Source: Methanobacteriota archaeon (GTDB lineage: Archaea > Thermoplasmatota > Poseidoniia > Poseidoniales > Poseidoniaceae). Taken from it: a stretch of DNA of 55,660 nucleotides. The stretch spans positions 1 through 55,660 of the forward strand of contig JABIGM010000017.1 of assembly GCA_018650165.1 (NCBI GenBank). The letters are read 5' to 3'. The translations under genes were made by a program, and so were the position numbers. Below are positions 10,450 to 38,763 of the stretch, in pieces; position 1 is the first letter of the stretch, and the number at the start of each line of letters is the position of its first letter. The notes beneath the pieces were generated by a model, which saw only the letters and a list, made by a program, of their open reading frames with translations, was not told the DNA's origin and did not search any database.

Positions 10450-13400
10450 AACTTTCTGTGGCAACTCCTAAAACAGACTTTCTTCGGCCTAGAACTGTGC
10501 GAAGGGCAATTCTAATTCTAGCAATATTCCTTCTTTCGGGAATCCCAATTACCAATCAATCGGTTCAGTCGCCCGCTGAAGAAAGTACTGACTGGTTAAG
10601 GTTCGACCTGCCTGACGATTCAATCCGAAATCTTGTAGGACAGTTAGAAGATTCTTTATCGATGGAAGAAAGGTCACTATTAGCCCATTCACGTTTAGGT
10701 ATACACGATGCTTCGGGGGTCCTTTTTGAACATGAGATTCCAGAGGAATTACTAACTGTAAGACCGGATTTAGTTTTAGTTTTGATTTCCACAGAATACA
10801 GGTTTTCAGAGGTGAGGGCCACAATCTCTGAGCAAGCAGGAGTAGAGGTTAGAGAGTTTATCGCACCTTCTGGATTGTTAGTACAAGGGACGCAAAATGG
10901 ATTGGCAATGTTGAAGGATATAGGTGGAATTGCTTCAATTCAACCAGTGCCGCTTGCTATGGTGGTAGACTTTTCAGTTATGGAACTCTCTGGAGAAGAG
11001 CCGGTTAGAATTGAGTCTTGGCGGGCTGAGACTTTACTGCCAGGAGTTGACATTTCTGATAATTGGGGGATGAGATTGCATCAAGAAATAGATCATGTGG
11101 CTAATCACATGCTCAGCGACCCAAGTTTAGCAGAAACAGGACGCTATGATGGAATTACTTCTGCATCGATTGCTACGATTGCTGCTGAGCCCTCAGTCTC
11201 ATGGATTGGTCCACAACCCAGCCTTACAATCTGGAATGACCAGGCTCGAAACCATATGAATATCAACGCAATGGAATCGTATTATACAACCGATCTTGAT
11301 GGTTCGGGACAGATTATTGCAGTAGCGGATTCAGGGTTAGATCATGACCACGGTGATTTTGGTAGCCGTATTATCGGAAATGTGGATGTCATTGGTGACG
11401 GCTCTACAGCAGATGCTCATTCGGGCCATGGTACACATGTAGCATGTACCGTGCTTGGTGATGGTTCAAGAGGAACTTATACTGGGATTGCGCCGGGGGC
11501 CGAACTCTATTTTCAAGCAATGGAAAACGATAACAGTGGTAGTTTTCAGTGGTCCAGTATCAATAATATGCTAAACACAGCATACAATAATGGAGCACGA
11601 ATACATTCAAATTCATGGGGCTCAAAATCCTCTTCTGAATGGGGTGTGTATACTTCTTCTTCAGAGGATGTAGATGACCGAACTCGCTATTATGACCAAT
11701 ATTATAGTGGGCGGGAAGGATTGGTTGTTCTCTTTGCAGCAGGTAATGATGGCTCAGACCCAGACACCATCGGTTCTCCTGCAACAGCAAAGAATACCAT
11801 CACGGTTGGAAACTCTCAAAATAGATACCAGGGCTCTCCAAATACAATAATGGATGGTTCTAGTAGAGGGCCAGTAGATGATGGGCGAATAAAACCAGAC
11901 ATACTTGCTCCTGGTGGCTATGTTCGTTCTTGTCGAGCTCAAGAAGCAACAGATACCGGTGGCGCAACCTGGGCCAATACTTGGTACCTTGAATACACTG
12001 GAACTAGTATGGCAACTCCAAATGCAGCAGGTACTGCAGCCTTAATCCGTGAATATATCACAGAAGTTGCTCAACGCCCAGAACCCCAAGGTGCTTTAGT
12101 GAAAGCATTGATGATATTAGGGGCAAGAGACGTAGGTACAAGAGATATTCCAAACATGAATGAAGGCTGGGGACGCATTGACTTGAAAGGAACACTTGCT
12201 CCAAATAATGGGCGAGGAATATGGGTAGATGACCGTTCAGTACTGTCGTCAACAGGTAACTCGAAGAGTTATTTATTCAATATTACAACTCCAAACCAAC
12301 CATTCAAAACGGTAGTAAGTTGGTCGGATGAGCGTGGGTCTAGGTTCTCGAATACGCAATTGGTAAACAATTTGAATTTGCTCGTAACCTCGCCAAGTGG
12401 TGTAGAGTACAAAGGTAACGAATTTTCTCAAGGGCGCTCAATACAGGGCGGTACATACGACACTCTGAATAACGTCGAAGTAGTTCTCGTAGATTCGGCA
12501 GAAATGGGATTATGGACAGTAAAAGTTACTGATGCAGGGCATTCAGGAACCAAGGCACAACCGTTTGCAGTGGCCGTTTCTGGCGTTGGAGTGAATGACT
12601 TACGACCTGACCCTTCTCCAATATTGTCATCCTTTGCGACAGACATTTCGATACCACAAGTTGGCGACGATGTCCTTGTAGAAATGGTAGTCTCAAATTT
12701 AGGAAACGTAGAGGCTGAGAATGTTGATGTGATATTCCAAGAAGAAGGAATATCTATCGATACTCAAATGTTTGACCTAGGACCGGGTGGTTCAAAAACA
12801 CTATTTTGGAATTGGCAACCTCAAACCTCTGGTGGAAGAACTCTCAGTTTCCTAATTGATTCCAGTGATGTTATTGATGAAATAAATGAGGCAAATAATC
12901 GCATGGATATTGTAGTGAATGTTACAACCCCTGGTGTTAGAATCGAATCTACGAATCCAAGTTTCAATCTACTGGATATCAATGCAACAACATCATCTTG
13001 GCAGATAACTCTGACCAATACAGCATTACTTACTACAAATGCATCAATCTCTCCAACAGGAGTTACCAATCCAAGCGGTAATGCTGAATCTTGGTATGTA
13101 GGTCTAGATGCGATAGATTTCGAATTAGAAGGACAAGAAGGGGCTCTAATAAACGTTACACTCGTTCATCCAAAAGGGCCAGACCCGGGGATCTATTTGA
13201 TTAATTTACTTGGCCTTGATGAAGATAATAATGTCAATAGCCCATACACTCTGATACTTGATGTGCCAATTTTGTCACAGACAATGATAGAGTTTTACTA
13301 TACTGTGATTCCGGTTCATCCAAGTGACCCCACTTCTGTTGACATTCACCTTTTCAATAATGGTAACGATGATGTAGGTTACGATTTATTCTTAGAATCT

Positions 13401-33962: not shown

Positions 33963-34103
33963 CAAACCCGTGACACCACCCCTCGCCCTTGAATGCTCGC
34001 ATTGCAACACCCCCCTTCGGGGTGTGTTGGCTATTGTTAATACACAGCGGTAGCCGTTCTCACAGTCGGTTGTTTCAAGTGCTACCCCTTGCCTCTTGTG
34101 TAC

Positions 34104-36872
34104 ATGGCAAGGCCATTTTTGACCACTCTCATCCTGACAATGATGGTTCTTGCAGTAATGCCATTGTCTACTATGGCGGAAGATAGCGGTGGGGTACAAG
34201 CATCAGCATCTACCGTTTCAATTTCACCTTCAGAGCCAGTTGAAGGTGGCTCGATCACAATCCGCCTTACATTGTATAACTCCAATAATTTTGCTGCAAA
34301 CGATGTACTGTACAAGTTTTATTGGGATGGAGTTGAATCAAATAAACTCATAGTTGCCGACACGGTTGATATTCCAGCCGAAGAAACAGTTGATGTTGAA
34401 AAGGTAAAATCTGGACTTACAGTTGGCGAGCATAAGGTATGGATCACCTATGAATATGCAGGTAGCGGCGAAGAAATGTTTTACTCTGAAATCGTAGTTG
34501 GTGGACTTGCAGACTTAGAAGCTACAACTATTACTACCAGTCCAGAATCTCTTAATTCAGGAGATTCGGTTTTAGTATCTACTGAGGTGAGTAATACAGG
34601 CTCAGAAAACGCCTCAGCAAGCCGGTTACAATTAGACCTAGATACACAGAGTGAAATTGTCAATGTCGATGCAATTCCAGCCGGTGAAAGCATTTGGGTT
34701 AACCACTATATGGTCGCTCCCTCTTCAGGCAGTCACGATGTTTCTGTTACATTAGATTTAGACGACGCTGTGGTTGAAGCAGATGAAAATAATGTATTCA
34801 CTTCCTCGCTCTCAGTTACCGCAAGAATGGATATTTATCATGTTGGAGATATTTTGATTGAAGCCGATTCTGGGGCTTTACAAGGCCCGTGGATTGTAAC
34901 AGGTTCATTGGAAAGAAGTGGTGGCAGCGGAGTAACAGAAGTGCCAATGAAACTCGTCATCAAGGATGAGTCCGGACAAGATTTACCATTACCTACATTC
35001 ACTGTAAATATTAGCGGAGGATCACTAACCCAGCAGGCTTGGACATTTACTATAACTTACGATTATGTTTCGGTACTAGCACCGGGTAACCACCAAGTGT
35101 CTGCAGTAATCGATCCTTACCAAACTGCGAGTTTTATTCAAGAATCAACCGACAATGACCAAGCAATAGCCTACTTTGATAAATTTGCAGTTCCCGATGT
35201 GTCTGTAGACCCATATGCATCTCCTTCACGAACTTCAGTTATTAGTGGAAGCAATGTTGACTGGACAGTGACCATAATCAATTCAGGACAAATAGAAGTG
35301 AAAGGCCGTTTAATCTATACTTGGGAAGGGCAAACTGTTAGCGATATAAGTCAACCAACAATTACAATTCAGGCTGGGGATACACATATTTGGAACGAAC
35401 CACTTCCTACAGAGAGTGGTGCTCACCAAGCGGAATTTTCTGCCCAGTGGGTGCCGTTGTCAAGTTCCTACGACTCTAATCCATTGAACTCCATAGCAAA
35501 CGGAAGCATCGAAGTCACTGCCCAGTTAAGATTGGTCTGGTCAAAGGCTTCAATGTCACTAGTTGATTCAGAAGGTGAAGCAGCAATATTCCCATTAGAT
35601 GGTGGGGAAGAATATACAGTTTCAATAAATCTTGCCGCACAAGAAACAGGTGCTGTAAATTATTCATGTGAAAATGCGATGGGACAAGTATTCGAAGAAA
35701 TAGAACTAATCATTACAGAGAGCGGCGAATTCTTGACAGTTAACTGCACATTTACTGCTACTGCACCATTCACAAACATCAATCTCATTCCAAGTGATAA
35801 CAAAGTAAGTTCGACACAAACATGGAATTGGGATTCGAAAGAATCCAGTTCGAATGTTGCCGATGAAGCAGGTAATATGCCATTACAAACTGCAGGGATG
35901 ATCGCTCTGATTTGTTTAGCTTTAGTTGCAATATTAATCGCTGCTGTAATTCTGACTAGAGAAACGGAGGAAGACGTTGACAGAGATATCTTCGATTACT
36001 GTCCAGCATGTGATGGAGAACTCGACGGAGATGAAGACCGCTGTCCTTCTTGTTCTTTCAATCTCAAGAAAGCCAGAAAACAATTCCACGATTGCGAAAC
36101 ATGTAGCGAACCGGTTCCGGATTTGTTGTCAAATTGTCCATATTGTGGAACTCCTCAGGATGTTTCCAAGTACTTTGAACAGCGTGAACAAAGAATCGTT
36201 GAGAAAAAGACAATCGCGCTTATCGATGAAGAAGAAATCAATCCTGAAGATATTCATGCAACCGGTTACGAAGGCTTCGATGAAGCAATCAAAGAATTTG
36301 GTTATGATGCCGAAGACTTGGAAGGTAATTGGGATGCGAATATTGCTAAAGCAGAGGCGGATGTTGAGGCTGCATATGATCGTAAGATGGCTGCTGAAGA
36401 AGAATCCAACCTTGATGATGAAGAGGCACTTGCAACTGTTACTACCAGTCTGAAAAGTATGGAAGAAACATTCGAAGGACATGACATCGATGCAATCTTA
36501 GCGGATAAGGACATCAAATCTCATGCAGATGATGGTGGCGAATTAAGTGCTAGTGATGCAGAAATCCGTGAGAGACTATTCGAAATTACCGGCGAAGAGG
36601 GTGTAATGCCTGGTGACGAAGTTAACATTGGCATGGGGATTCAAGATCGTTCACTTGCTGGAAATGTCTTACCTGAAGACGCGATGGATTTCTCATTAGA
36701 TGAAGAAGATGATGAAATCAATCCAGTCGCAGCAGCAACTGCCGAGACAAAACGTCGAAGAGGAGTACGCCGTAGATCTAAGCAAGCCAAGACTGCTGAA
36801 TGTGGCGCCTGTGGAGCAGACCTCTCTGAAGACGCAAATGAATGTTCAACATGCGGTGCTAAGTTTGAGTAA
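34104..36872 (+). CDS. single-pass protein: CARDB/Ig ectodomain, cytoplasmic double zinc ribbon, acidic region, terminal zinc ribbon
   Basis: Signal peptide; LDDAVVEADENN and IQESTDND CARDB motifs; TM near residue 610; six CxxC pairs. Confidence 0.85.
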   Translation: MARPFLTTLILTMMVLAVMPLSTMAEDSGGVQASASTVSISPSEPVEGGSITIRLTLYNSNNFAANDVLYKFYWDGVESNKLIVADTVDIPAEETVDVEKVKSGLTVGEHKVWITYEYAGSGEEMFYSEIVVGGLADLEATTITTSPESLNSGDSVLVSTEVSNTGSENASASRLQLDLDTQSEIVNVDAIPAGESIWVNHYMVAPSSGSHDVSVTLDLDDAVVEADENNVFTSSLSVTARMDIYHVGDILIEADSGALQGPWIVTGSLERSGGSGVTEVPMKLVIKDESGQDLPLPTFTVNISGGSLTQQAWTFTITYDYVSVLAPGNHQVSAVIDPYQTASFIQESTDNDQAIAYFDKFAVPDVSVDPYASPSRTSVISGSNVDWTVTIINSGQIEVKGRLIYTWEGQTVSDISQPTITIQAGDTHIWNEPLPTESGAHQAEFSAQWVPLSSSYDSNPLNSIANGSIEVTAQLRLVWSKASMSLVDSEGEAAIFPLDGGEEYTVSINLAAQETGAVNYSCENAMGQVFEEIELIITESGEFLTVNCTFTATAPFTNINLIPSDNKVSSTQTWNWDSKESSSNVADEAGNMPLQTAGMIALICLALVAILIAAVILTRETEEDVDRDIFDYCPACDGELDGDEDRCPSCSFNLKKARKQFHDCETCSEPVPDLLSNCPYCGTPQDVSKYFEQREQRIVEKKTIALIDEEEINPEDIHATGYEGFDEAIKEFGYDAEDLEGNWDANIAKAEADVEAAYDRKMAAEEESNLDDEEALATVTTSLKSMEETFEGHDIDAILADKDIKSHADDGGELSASDAEIRERLFEITGEEGVMPGDEVNIGMGIQDRSLAGNVLPEDAMDFSLDEEDDEINPVAAATAETKRRRGVRRRSKQAKTAECGACGADLSEDANECSTCGAKFE

Positions 36873-36875
36873 TGA

Positions 36876-36943
36876 TGCCTGTCAGTACTCATAGGGTTCG
36901 TCATTGCAAAAGCTCGGCTGACCCTCTTGACTTCATTCAGGCA
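36876..36943 (-). ncRNA. box C/D guide sRNA (predicted targets 23S C1920 and tRNA-Met C34)
   Basis: Minus strand reads TGCCTG-A-ATGAAGT(C)-CAAGAGGGTCAG-CCGA(D')-GCTTTTGCA-ATGACGA(C')-ACCCTATGAGTA-CTGA(D)-CAGGCA: two 12-nt guides and a 6-bp terminal stem, fully intergenic. Confidence 0.9.
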
Positions 36944-37017
36944 AACCAGTCGAAACATTGGATGCCCTTCAAACCATCGAGGGGTGTGTTTGATAGATTG
37001 GAGCATAGTGGAGGGGA

Positions 37018-37584
37018 ATGATGAGACCTCGCCATGCCATGTCAGCCGTCATCATGTTGTCCATTTTAATGGCATCAAGCATGGGCTGTATCGGCTTGGT
37101 CCCAGCGCGTGAATTCATGGAGGATTTACGCGACCCTCCTATTCTGGTTGAGGTAGTCGAAAAAATAAACGTTGAACACGTATTTGTCACCGACATCACC
37201 AATGTTCAAGCTACAACCTCTTATTCGAGTGTCCAAACCTTTACAGTTGATTCTGATGTTACAGAAATCAGTGCTTATATCACTGCAGCAATGCCATTAG
37301 AATTAATTTTGCCAGGAATACCAACAGAAGTTAGATATGTGAAAGCAACCTTAACAGATGCAAATGGTGATCAAGTTTGGATTGAAGAAATCACTGAAAC
37401 AGAAAGAAAGATGGTTGCAACATTTCAACAACCTCTCGCTGAAGGAATTTGGACACTTAGTGTCGAAGCTAGGGGCTATGGTGAAGAGATAGCGAACCTG
37501 TACAAAGATTCATTCCAAGTACTGGTCAAAATCGATAGGGAGTGCTGGCAGTACCCCAATGAAATCGGTTGTTCTTACAATTGA
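37018..37584 (+). CDS. putative lipoprotein
   Basis: Basic N-terminus, hydrophobic core, archaeal lipobox-like SMGC; SD GGAGGGG. Confidence 0.75.
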   Translation: MMRPRHAMSAVIMLSILMASSMGCIGLVPAREFMEDLRDPPILVEVVEKINVEHVFVTDITNVQATTSYSSVQTFTVDSDVTEISAYITAAMPLELILPGIPTEVRYVKATLTDANGDQVWIEEITETERKMVATFQQPLAEGIWTLSVEARGYGEEIANLYKDSFQVLVKIDRECWQYPNEIGCSYN

Positions 37585-38763
37585 TTAGGCCAGGCTTGAA
37601 TCACAGGCATACTTCCGTGAGCAATTCTCACATTTGCCCTTTCTATTGTGATTCCTTTCAGCTCCACCCTCAGACATTAACCTTTGAATTTCTTTAACTG
37701 CTGAAAATAAAACATGTTTATTGCTGTCATCCCATTCGATTGTATGGAGATTTTCAGTTCCATATCGCAGAACACCATATGGTGGTTTACGATTGGTTGT
37801 TGATTCCACTAAATGTAGGTAGGCTAGAAGTTGCATCTTGTGGGATTTGTGTGGCCTATCTGGGATTTTACCAGTTTTCTGTTCGACTGGAATGAATTCG
37901 CCTTCCACGATTACAATCTGGTCAGGCCTACCACGTAATCCCGTAGATGTATCCACAAGAACCCCAGCAGTTGTTTCGTCATCAGAATAAACAACATCTA
38001 CATCTTCCTTAATTCCCGCATCAATTCTTGCAACTTCAAGTGCGTTATCCACTAATAGGGCACGTTGTAACTGCCATGACGCTAGTAGAGTCCATATCAT
38101 TGCAACAGCCACTAATATGAAACCGGCTTGTTGTTTATTTTCTGCCCAAATTAATCCGATTGCATGTAATCCAAATATTGTAGCGCCAATCAAGAACCCG
38201 GCTTCTACTTTACCACCTTGCCCCCATCCCCCAATGAATCCATAGGGCTCAATTGTATGTGGTAAATTGATATCGTCTAGGCCACTTACTCCATTCATAC
38301 CTTCCGAATCTTCAATCGGGTAATTCAACCATTTTCTCCACGGAAGGTAAATTGCGAGTAAACCTATTGCCAACCAAATAAGTGCAAGTATCGTGAGATA
38401 TTGTGAGATATCAACTGGTGATATATCATCAGAAATATTACTGAAAATAATAGAATCTGATATGAAAATAATCACTATGGCAAACCACCAAGACCAGATC
38501 ACTAATGCACGTTTCAATTCATTTTGTTTTTGTTTGAATTCTCTCACTTTACTGTGCATCTGAGCATGTTTTTCTCGGCCGATATTAATTGCTTTACCGC
38601 GCCCAGAGATACCTTCTCTGGCTAGCGACCAAGACAGTGGACAATAGGCGTGTCTCTCAAGATCACTAGCAGATACATGGAGTGCCTTTCCATCACTATC
38701 CCTCCAAAAACCATCATCGCCTTCCTCTGCGATATCAGATATTTTGGTAGAACCTTTGGCCAT
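37585..38763 (-). CDS. solo Cas4-like PD-(D/E)xK nuclease with four inserted TM helices
   Basis: SASDLERHAYCP, GREKH, GRPD, EQK, HKMQLLAY and C-terminal CENCSRKYAC (Fe-S staple Cys); four hydrophobic segments at about residues 86-232. Confidence 0.85.
   Translation of the reverse strand: MAKGSTKISDIAEEGDDGFWRDSDGKALHVSASDLERHAYCPLSWSLAREGISGRGKAINIGREKHAQMHSKVREFKQKQNELKRALVIWSWWFAIVIIFISDSIIFSNISDDISPVDISQYLTILALIWLAIGLLAIYLPWRKWLNYPIEDSEGMNGVSGLDDINLPHTIEPYGFIGGWGQGGKVEAGFLIGATIFGLHAIGLIWAENKQQAGFILVAVAMIWTLLASWQLQRALLVDNALEVARIDAGIKEDVDVVYSDDETTAGVLVDTSTGLRGRPDQIVIVEGEFIPVEQKTGKIPDRPHKSHKMQLLAYLHLVESTTNRKPPYGVLRYGTENLHTIEWDDSNKHVLFSAVKEIQRLMSEGGAERNHNRKGKCENCSRKYACDSSLA

Follow-up and report, generated by a model that had tools for sequence, protein, structure and literature searches.

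A 68-nt element on the minus strand of the Poseidoniales DNA analysed here (a stretch of 55,660 nucleotides, referred to as the window) is almost certainly a real box C/D sRNA. We consider it likely that this archaeal sRNA is expressed from its own promoter and acts in trans as a dual guide, its D guide being directed at C34 of the elongator pre-tRNA-Met and its D' guide at the nucleotide of 23S rRNA helix 69 (H69) that corresponds to E. coli C1920. Among the sequence evidence, the decisive weight comes from the two 10-bp target matches, the conservation of the element as a block and the covariation of its terminal stem. A search of the whole window at the curated Rfam thresholds returned no RNA family, and no tRNA was found in the window either; standard annotation therefore misses this sRNA gene.

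The initial annotation had described a terminal stem, box C, a 12-nt guide, boxes D' and C', a second 12-nt guide and box D, and reading the minus strand bore out this arrangement (Table 1). The terminal C/D motif next to a stem with K-turn potential, the internal D'/C' motif and the two 12-nt spacers are the features by which archaeal box C/D sRNAs are recognised. Following general K-turn geometry, the terminal motif can be drawn with a closing stem, an AAU bulge, tandem G·A/A·G pairs, an A-U pair where U·U is usual, and a G-C pair. The tandem GAs and the G6-C1 pair are invariant or G-U across the 33 distinct sRNA sequences of our alignment (A1). Box C departs from RUGAUGA at positions 5 and 7, and neither departure touches the tandem G·A pairs; position 5 co-varies with D-box position 2 in relatives. 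A box C frame two bases off the one originally proposed was considered and rejected, as the redrawn K-turn (AAU bulge, then GA) gave the same frame. In some genera the hairpin in the D'/C' linker is lengthened, to GCC/GGC or GCC/GGU. AGGGU in one guide can pair with ACCCU in the other (minus strand, 36886-36929), so that the minimum-energy fold of the naked RNA pairs the two guides; this partial complementarity is probably a by-product of the two targets.

Table 1. Features of the sRNA gene and its upstream region, in window coordinates
Feature	Position	Strand	Remarks
TATA-like box TTTGAAG	36967..36973	minus	first base 30 nt upstream of stem
Terminal stem, 5' half, TGCCTG	36938..36943	minus	pairs with 36876-36881
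Single A between 5' stem and box C	36937	minus	
Box C, AUGAAGU	36930..36936	minus	variant of RUGAUGA; AUGA and G6 invariant in 33 sequences
D' guide, CAAGAGGGUCAG, 12 nt	36918..36929	minus	positions 2-11 complementary to 23S UGACCCUCUU
Box D', CCGA	36914..36917	minus	C1, G3 and A4 invariant in A1
D'/C' linker, 9 nt, short GC/GC hairpin	36905..36913	minus	columns 32-41 and 33-40 paired in 33/33
Box C', AUGACGA	36898..36904	minus	nearly invariant in A1
D guide, ACCCUAUGAGUA, 12 nt	36886..36897	minus	positions 2-11 complementary to pre-tRNA-Met ACUCAUA+GGG
Box D, CUGA	36882..36885	minus	GA invariant; position 2 is U, G, C or A in relatives
Terminal stem, 3' half, CAGGCA	36876..36881	minus	

The target of the D guide was identified in the genome itself. 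The elongator tRNA-Met(CAU) gene, on contig C57, has a G1-C72 acceptor stem and a 56-nt intron at the canonical position 37/38, which agrees with the intron-containing precursor that had been proposed from the guide. At the junction the exon reads ACUCAUA and the intron GGGCAG. Positions 2-11 of the D guide, counted from box D, pair perfectly with ACUCAUAGGG, leaving positions 1 and 12 unpaired. The duplex consists of seven exon bases and the first three intron bases and places C34 opposite guide position 5 (D+5), confirming the predicted nucleotide against the genome's own tRNA. The originally predicted target sequence was correct in all but its outermost base, which lies outside the 10-bp duplex: the intron starts with GGGC rather than GGGU. 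Ten base pairs at positions 2-11 is the longest duplex known from solved archaeal C/D RNP structures. Mature tRNA-Met offers only seven pairs, suggesting that the precursor is the substrate. The site is unique in the genome except for the antisense of the sRNA gene itself, and the anticodon region is invariant in 26 relatives. The sRNA is encoded on contig C61, outside the tRNA intron, and would thus act in trans. The core RCCCU(A/G)UGA of the D guide is retained everywhere, the A-to-G change giving a G·U pair with U36. Counting against the assignment, the D guide is down to 8-9 pairs in genera g11 and g12 with the tRNA unchanged; since the anticodon region is invariant, these changes at guide positions 2-3 are mismatches or wobbles, not compensations. 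Taken together, we predict with high confidence that the D guide directs formation of Cm34 before splicing.

The intron was taken from an ARAGORN call. A thermodynamic fold of the pre-tRNA did not reproduce a bulge-helix-bulge, and the one that the precursor may form was drawn by hand. The intron is well conserved: tRNA and intron together are 78-96% identical across the family (L053:252-381 and its homologues L054-L078), with a covarying hairpin right after the GGG and an invariant GUCUGAGAC at the 3' end. This is conservation beyond what the splice motif alone would need.

The rRNA target was read from relatives, because the organism's own 23S rRNA gene is split at contig ends. A search with RF02540 gave no 23S match in its genome; BLAST located fragments at C32:1-1103 and C9:38880-39523, with the middle of the gene, including H69, unassembled. 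H69 reads UAACUAUGACCCUCUUAAGG (also written out as GGGGGUAACUAUGACCCUCUUAAGG) in five genomes of the same genus and in two genomes of another genus of the family, so that the archaeal consensus given in the initial annotation was correct. The same-genus set includes a genome (G177) in which the 101-nt sRNA region is 94% identical. Positions 2-11 of the D' guide pair perfectly with UGACCCUCUU in H69, a 10-mer that is unique in that 23S rRNA, and guide position 5 (D'+5) faces the C equivalent to E. coli C1920. Both the proposed 10-nt pairing and the proposed nucleotide thus hold on the relatives' 23S rRNA. C1920 had also been called a known 2'-O-methylation site. That part stands for bacteria, where C1920 is the 2'-O-methylation site of TlyA, whereas archaeal Cm1920 is a prediction. 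The numbering was anchored on the U's at 1911, 1915 and 1917, the latter two being conserved as pseudouridines in the H69 loop (PMC2584109). Helices 68, 69 and 71 are methylation hot spots (Dennis et al., PMC4644070). In one member of family f4 (L133 in genome G234) the H69 guide and the D' box are one base out of register (UUAAGAGGGUCG followed by CAGA), and the predicted site there would be C1921, not C1920. Both guides of our element form 10/10 Watson-Crick pairs with their targets; assignment of a box C/D target asks for 9 bp or more with rRNA or tRNA across the N+5 nucleotide (PMC4644070).

To judge the element against chance, we counted matches to a strict pattern of boxes, spacings and a stem of at least 4 bp. 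The 1.75-Mb genome holds this site and one other, and six order-1 Markov random genomes held 0, 3, 0, 0, 0 and 0 (about 0.5 per genome). Because the pattern occurs in random genomes, the boxes alone are only mildly unusual and constitute weak evidence. The chance that a random spacer would give such an rRNA match is estimated at about 0.004 (about 4400 sites over 4^10). The second match to the pattern lies outside the window, on the plus strand of contig C24 at about 10754-10825. It has a canonical box C, AUGAUGA, and a D guide, UUGAUGGGCGAA, of which nine contiguous bases complement UUCGCCCAU in the 23S rRNA of a relative (L031 position 2526, in the A-loop helix region).

Conservation in other genomes of the group, which had been anticipated, was borne out both by BLAST and by a covariance model. 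With the 101-nt region as query against 200 genomes of the family, BLAST gave one match in each of 139 genomes (140 of 201 with the organism's own), spanning 11 of 12 genera, and many of the alignments start and stop at the ends of the sRNA. In A1, the terminal stem has its five inner pairs formed in 100% of the sequences, with compensatory double changes in three of them (GCCTG/CAGGC, GCTCG/CGAGC, GCCCG/CGGGC, GTCTG/CAGAC and GTCCG/CGGAC are all found). The whole terminal stem is 96.5% paired and shows compensatory changes in four of its six pairs. The covariation score exceeded those of all 500 shuffles and all slid controls, and RNAalifold independently recovered the terminal stem and the internal hairpin. 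With A1 as its basis, a covariance model (R1) gave one match per genome in 113 of 151 genomes of the class (f1, 61/65; f2, 32/40; f3, 17/43; f4, 2/2) and in 84 of 151 genomes sampled across the phylum.

These data bear on two readings in which the element is not an RNA gene at all. The first takes it for a box-like motif that arose by chance, a DNA site bound by protein or the terminator hairpin of a convergent gene. The sRNA occupies most of a 145-nt gap between two plus-strand ORFs, and its 3' stem ends only 4 nt from the stop codon of one of them, a convergent 927-aa ORF that ends at 36872. This closeness would suit a terminator, and the box pattern by itself is not very rare. Against this reading, the two target matches are independent and in the correct register, the changes in the stem are compensatory, and the element is conserved throughout the phylum, in other genomic contexts. 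There is also no T-run downstream of the stem; the 3' end of the sRNA is probably set by RNP protection. We therefore regard this first reading as highly improbable. The second is that the element is part of a 121-aa minus-strand ORF (36641-37006), whose open frame does cover it. This ORF has no Pfam family, is antisense to the stretch of the 927-aa gene that encodes its conserved C-terminus, and shows conservation only in the 68-nt block. Moreover, the homologues are 67, 68, 70 and 72 nt long, and length differences that are not multiples of three speak against coding. The chance that the element is coding is negligible.

The surroundings of the gene were also examined. The 927-aa protein (34089-36872, plus strand) contains a CARDB domain and has a weak double zinc ribbon match below the Pfam cut-off. 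Its coding end (...CGAKFE*) adjoins the 3' end of the sRNA in most of the f1 loci looked at, so that this gene and the sRNA are syntenic across much of family f1. The ORF on the other side encodes 188 aa without a known Pfam family, starts at 37018 and is divergent from the sRNA. The TATA-like box noted upstream of the sRNA proved to be conserved in position: its sequence, TTTGAAG, is kept within the genus, and the other lineages looked at have TTTGA, TTCAA, TTGATA or an A/T-rich box at about the same distance. On the plus strand, between 36985 and 37017, a TTTGATAG box, conserved as TTGATACATTG in the genus, precedes the ATG of the 188-aa ORF by about 25-30 nt. This suggests that the ORF is expressed as a leaderless mRNA and that back-to-back promoters lie within 74 nt. 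Further along, a 392-aa minus-strand ORF (37585-38763) matches the PD-(D/E)XK nuclease and Cas4 (DUF83) families in its C-terminal half.

The proteins expected of a C/D RNP are all encoded in the genome. Fibrillarin (PF01269, 156.7 bits) and Nop5 (PF01798, 110.2 bits) are the products of adjacent genes on contig C34, and there are two L7Ae-family proteins (PF01248, 66.9 and 48.8 bits). Transcription of the sRNA, RNP assembly and both methylations are proposed here by analogy with the established archaeal C/D RNP model. According to that model, L7Ae would bind both K-turns, the terminal one (C/D) and the internal one (C'/D'), and a Nop5 dimer and two fibrillarins would assemble next. Each 12-nt spacer would form a 10-bp duplex with its target, and fibrillarin would place a methyl group on the 2'-OH of the target nucleotide that pairs with the fifth guide base upstream of box D or D'. 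The D guide would bind the intron-containing elongator pre-tRNA-Met and give Cm34 before splicing, as in Haloferax sR-tMet; the D' guide would bind the 3' strand of 23S H69 during ribosome assembly and give Cm1920.

The D half of the sRNA has well-described counterparts. A separate C/D sRNA, part of whose pairing is with the intron, guides Cm34 formation on intron-containing tRNA-Met, and the same D guide is found in 17 euryarchaea among haloarchaea, methanogens and Thermococcales, including a Pyrococcus RNA that Rfam calls sR41 (PMC2584109, Additional file 5). No member of the present phylum is among the 17 listed (PMC2584109). For Haloferax volcanii, sR-tMet has been proven experimentally (Joardar et al. 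2011, as cited in PMC4033218). Our D guide is identical to the sR-tMet guides of Additional file 5 at 10 of 12 positions. The element gave sub-threshold Rfam matches to sR-tMet, sR3 and sR41; that to sR-tMet (RF02163) scored 20.7 bits against a gathering threshold of 50, and was aligned over model positions 1-72 with the D half nearly identical. Functionally, what defines sR-tMet is present here, namely a D guide that is complementary to both exon and intron bases of the elongator pre-tRNA-Met and places C34 at D+5. Like sR-tMet, the element is a separate trans-acting C/D sRNA with a short terminal stem, a D guide of the form RCCCUAUGAG(U/C)N and three intron G's in the duplex. It differs in its box C, AUGAAGU, and in having between C and D' a guide of the full 12 nt, for which a perfect rRNA target exists; the C-D' spacers of sR-tMet homologues are 9-12 nt long and have no assigned target (PMC2584109). 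The sRNA is very probably an orthologue, in function, of sR-tMet. Because its D half is the known sR-tMet guide, the novelty of the finding is limited.

The D' half resembles a Thermococcales sRNA. In P. furiosus, P. abyssi, P. horikoshii and T. kodakarensis, an H69 sRNA has the D guide (C/U/A)AAGAGGGUUAG followed by CCGA (PMC2584109, Additional file 7). The D' guide of our element differs from it at one position and is aimed at the same 3' strand of H69. In contrast to the Thermococcales RNA, where it is the D guide, the H69 guide is here the D' guide and sits with a tRNA-Met guide. The partner guide in Thermococcales is assigned to the 5' strand of H69, at the G1909 equivalent, and the target of the D guide is not discussed (PMC2584109). 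A GUUACCCCC-type guide, against the H69 5' strand (GUUA...), was not found next to a D box in the organism's own genome, so that the Thermococcales double-guide arrangement is not seen there. In bacteria, TlyA methylates the 2'-O of 23S C1920 and of 16S C1409. The predicted nucleotide and the H69 chemistry are the same, but TlyA is a stand-alone protein enzyme that uses no guide RNA and is unrelated. The tRNA-Trp intron guide of Haloferax and Pyrococcus likewise forms Cm34 on an intron-containing pre-tRNA in a duplex that uses intron bases (PMC2584109, PMC7994747). That guide lies within the intron of its own target, whereas the present sRNA has a gene to itself, 4 nt away from a convergent and unrelated gene for a protein.

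The H69 guide is intact (10/10 pairs, 12-nt spacer) in genera g1 (35 of 37 sequences), g2, g5, g7 and g10 of family f1, in g16 and part of g17 of the sister family f2, and in f4. Outside the class, it is intact in f39, f10, f37, f35, f28, f41, f18 and one f16 genome. In these guides positions 2-11 are conserved, and the non-pairing position 12 is C, G, A or U. H69 complementarity is gone in f1 genera g4, g8, g9, g11 and g12, and in most of f2, f3, f6, f16 and f33. All lineages without it have a D' spacer shortened to 9-11 nt, and no stretch of at least 8 nt matching 23S rRNA was found in the degenerate spacers. We also searched the losing genera for an H69 guide that had moved to another sRNA: pattern matches occurred at the rate of the reversed-pattern control, and those inspected lay in coding-like sequence. 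Loss on so many occasions indicates that the H69 guide is dispensable. Guide-target covariation was considered as a further line of support and rejected, since neither H69 nor the anticodon region varies; one f16 genome has a C-to-U change at position 3 of the D' guide, which is for this reason a mismatch or wobble, not a compensation.

This pattern raises the question of whether only the D guide is active, with the D' match to H69 being a decaying relic or serving as an assembly chaperone without methyl transfer. Such a reading would account for the repeated loss of H69 complementarity while the D guide stays, and it accords with the described sR-tMet RNAs, which lack an assigned D' target. 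C1920 is, in addition, base-paired in mature H69. In Pyrobaculum, tRNA-targeting sRNAs usually have one orphan guide (review, PMC7994747), which makes a mixed tRNA/rRNA dual guide somewhat unusual, yet within ordinary variation. Nevertheless, in the guides that retain complementarity exactly positions 2-11 pair, without a mismatch, the spacer has 12 nt and the GA of box D' is intact, and the one variable position is 12, which is expected to be unpaired. Intact guides occur in at least five genera of the family and in about ten further families of the phylum, a depth at which a neutral relic would not remain identical. Activity of the D guide alone is consequently unlikely in our assessment, and a functional D' guide with Cm1920 as its predicted product is reasonably well favoured. 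On these sequence comparisons, the simplest account is a dual guide that is probably ancestral to the phylum, is functional where kept and was apparently lost several times over.

Genus g3 presents a separate case. The sRNA was not found there, with 0 of 13 genomes matched by BLAST and no credible match to R1. Weak R1 matches were considered as possible relics and rejected: those inspected lie in seemingly protein-coding sequence, with one ambiguous (L084). In all six g3 genomes compared (L068, L160-L164) the tRNA-Met intron starts with GGA, not GGG, and in most of them it is shorter. The change from GGG to GGA costs the guide one pair, and in the intron helix as drawn by hand it replaces a G·U with an A-U. 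The absence of the sRNA and the intron change may reflect co-evolution, for which the support is anecdotal because this is a single evolutionary event.

The residence of both guides in one RNP, in about ten families of the phylum and in the class, could be read as functional coupling instead of an accident of history. As a separate idea, guide modules may be exchanged between sRNA scaffolds. Coupling is conceivable because the guide sites of symmetric C/D RNPs work best when both are engaged, and module exchange because a near-identical H69 guide with CCGA sits in a different scaffold in Thermococcales. We consider either idea quite improbable. If coupling were true, Cm34 formation on elongator tRNA-Met could be tied to assembly of the large subunit.

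The Poseidoniales are abundant marine archaea, and the sRNA described here provides them with a well-supported C/D guide RNA that predicts Cm34 in elongator tRNA-Met and Cm1920 in H69, a helix of an intersubunit bridge. Both predicted modifications are testable on environmental RNA, and the R1 covariance model finds the family across the phylum. Sister genera, some of which keep the H69 guide while others have lost it, provide natural knock-outs. Collectively, these results represent a sound new annotation that leaves the picture of how C/D RNPs work unchanged and involves no new mechanism.
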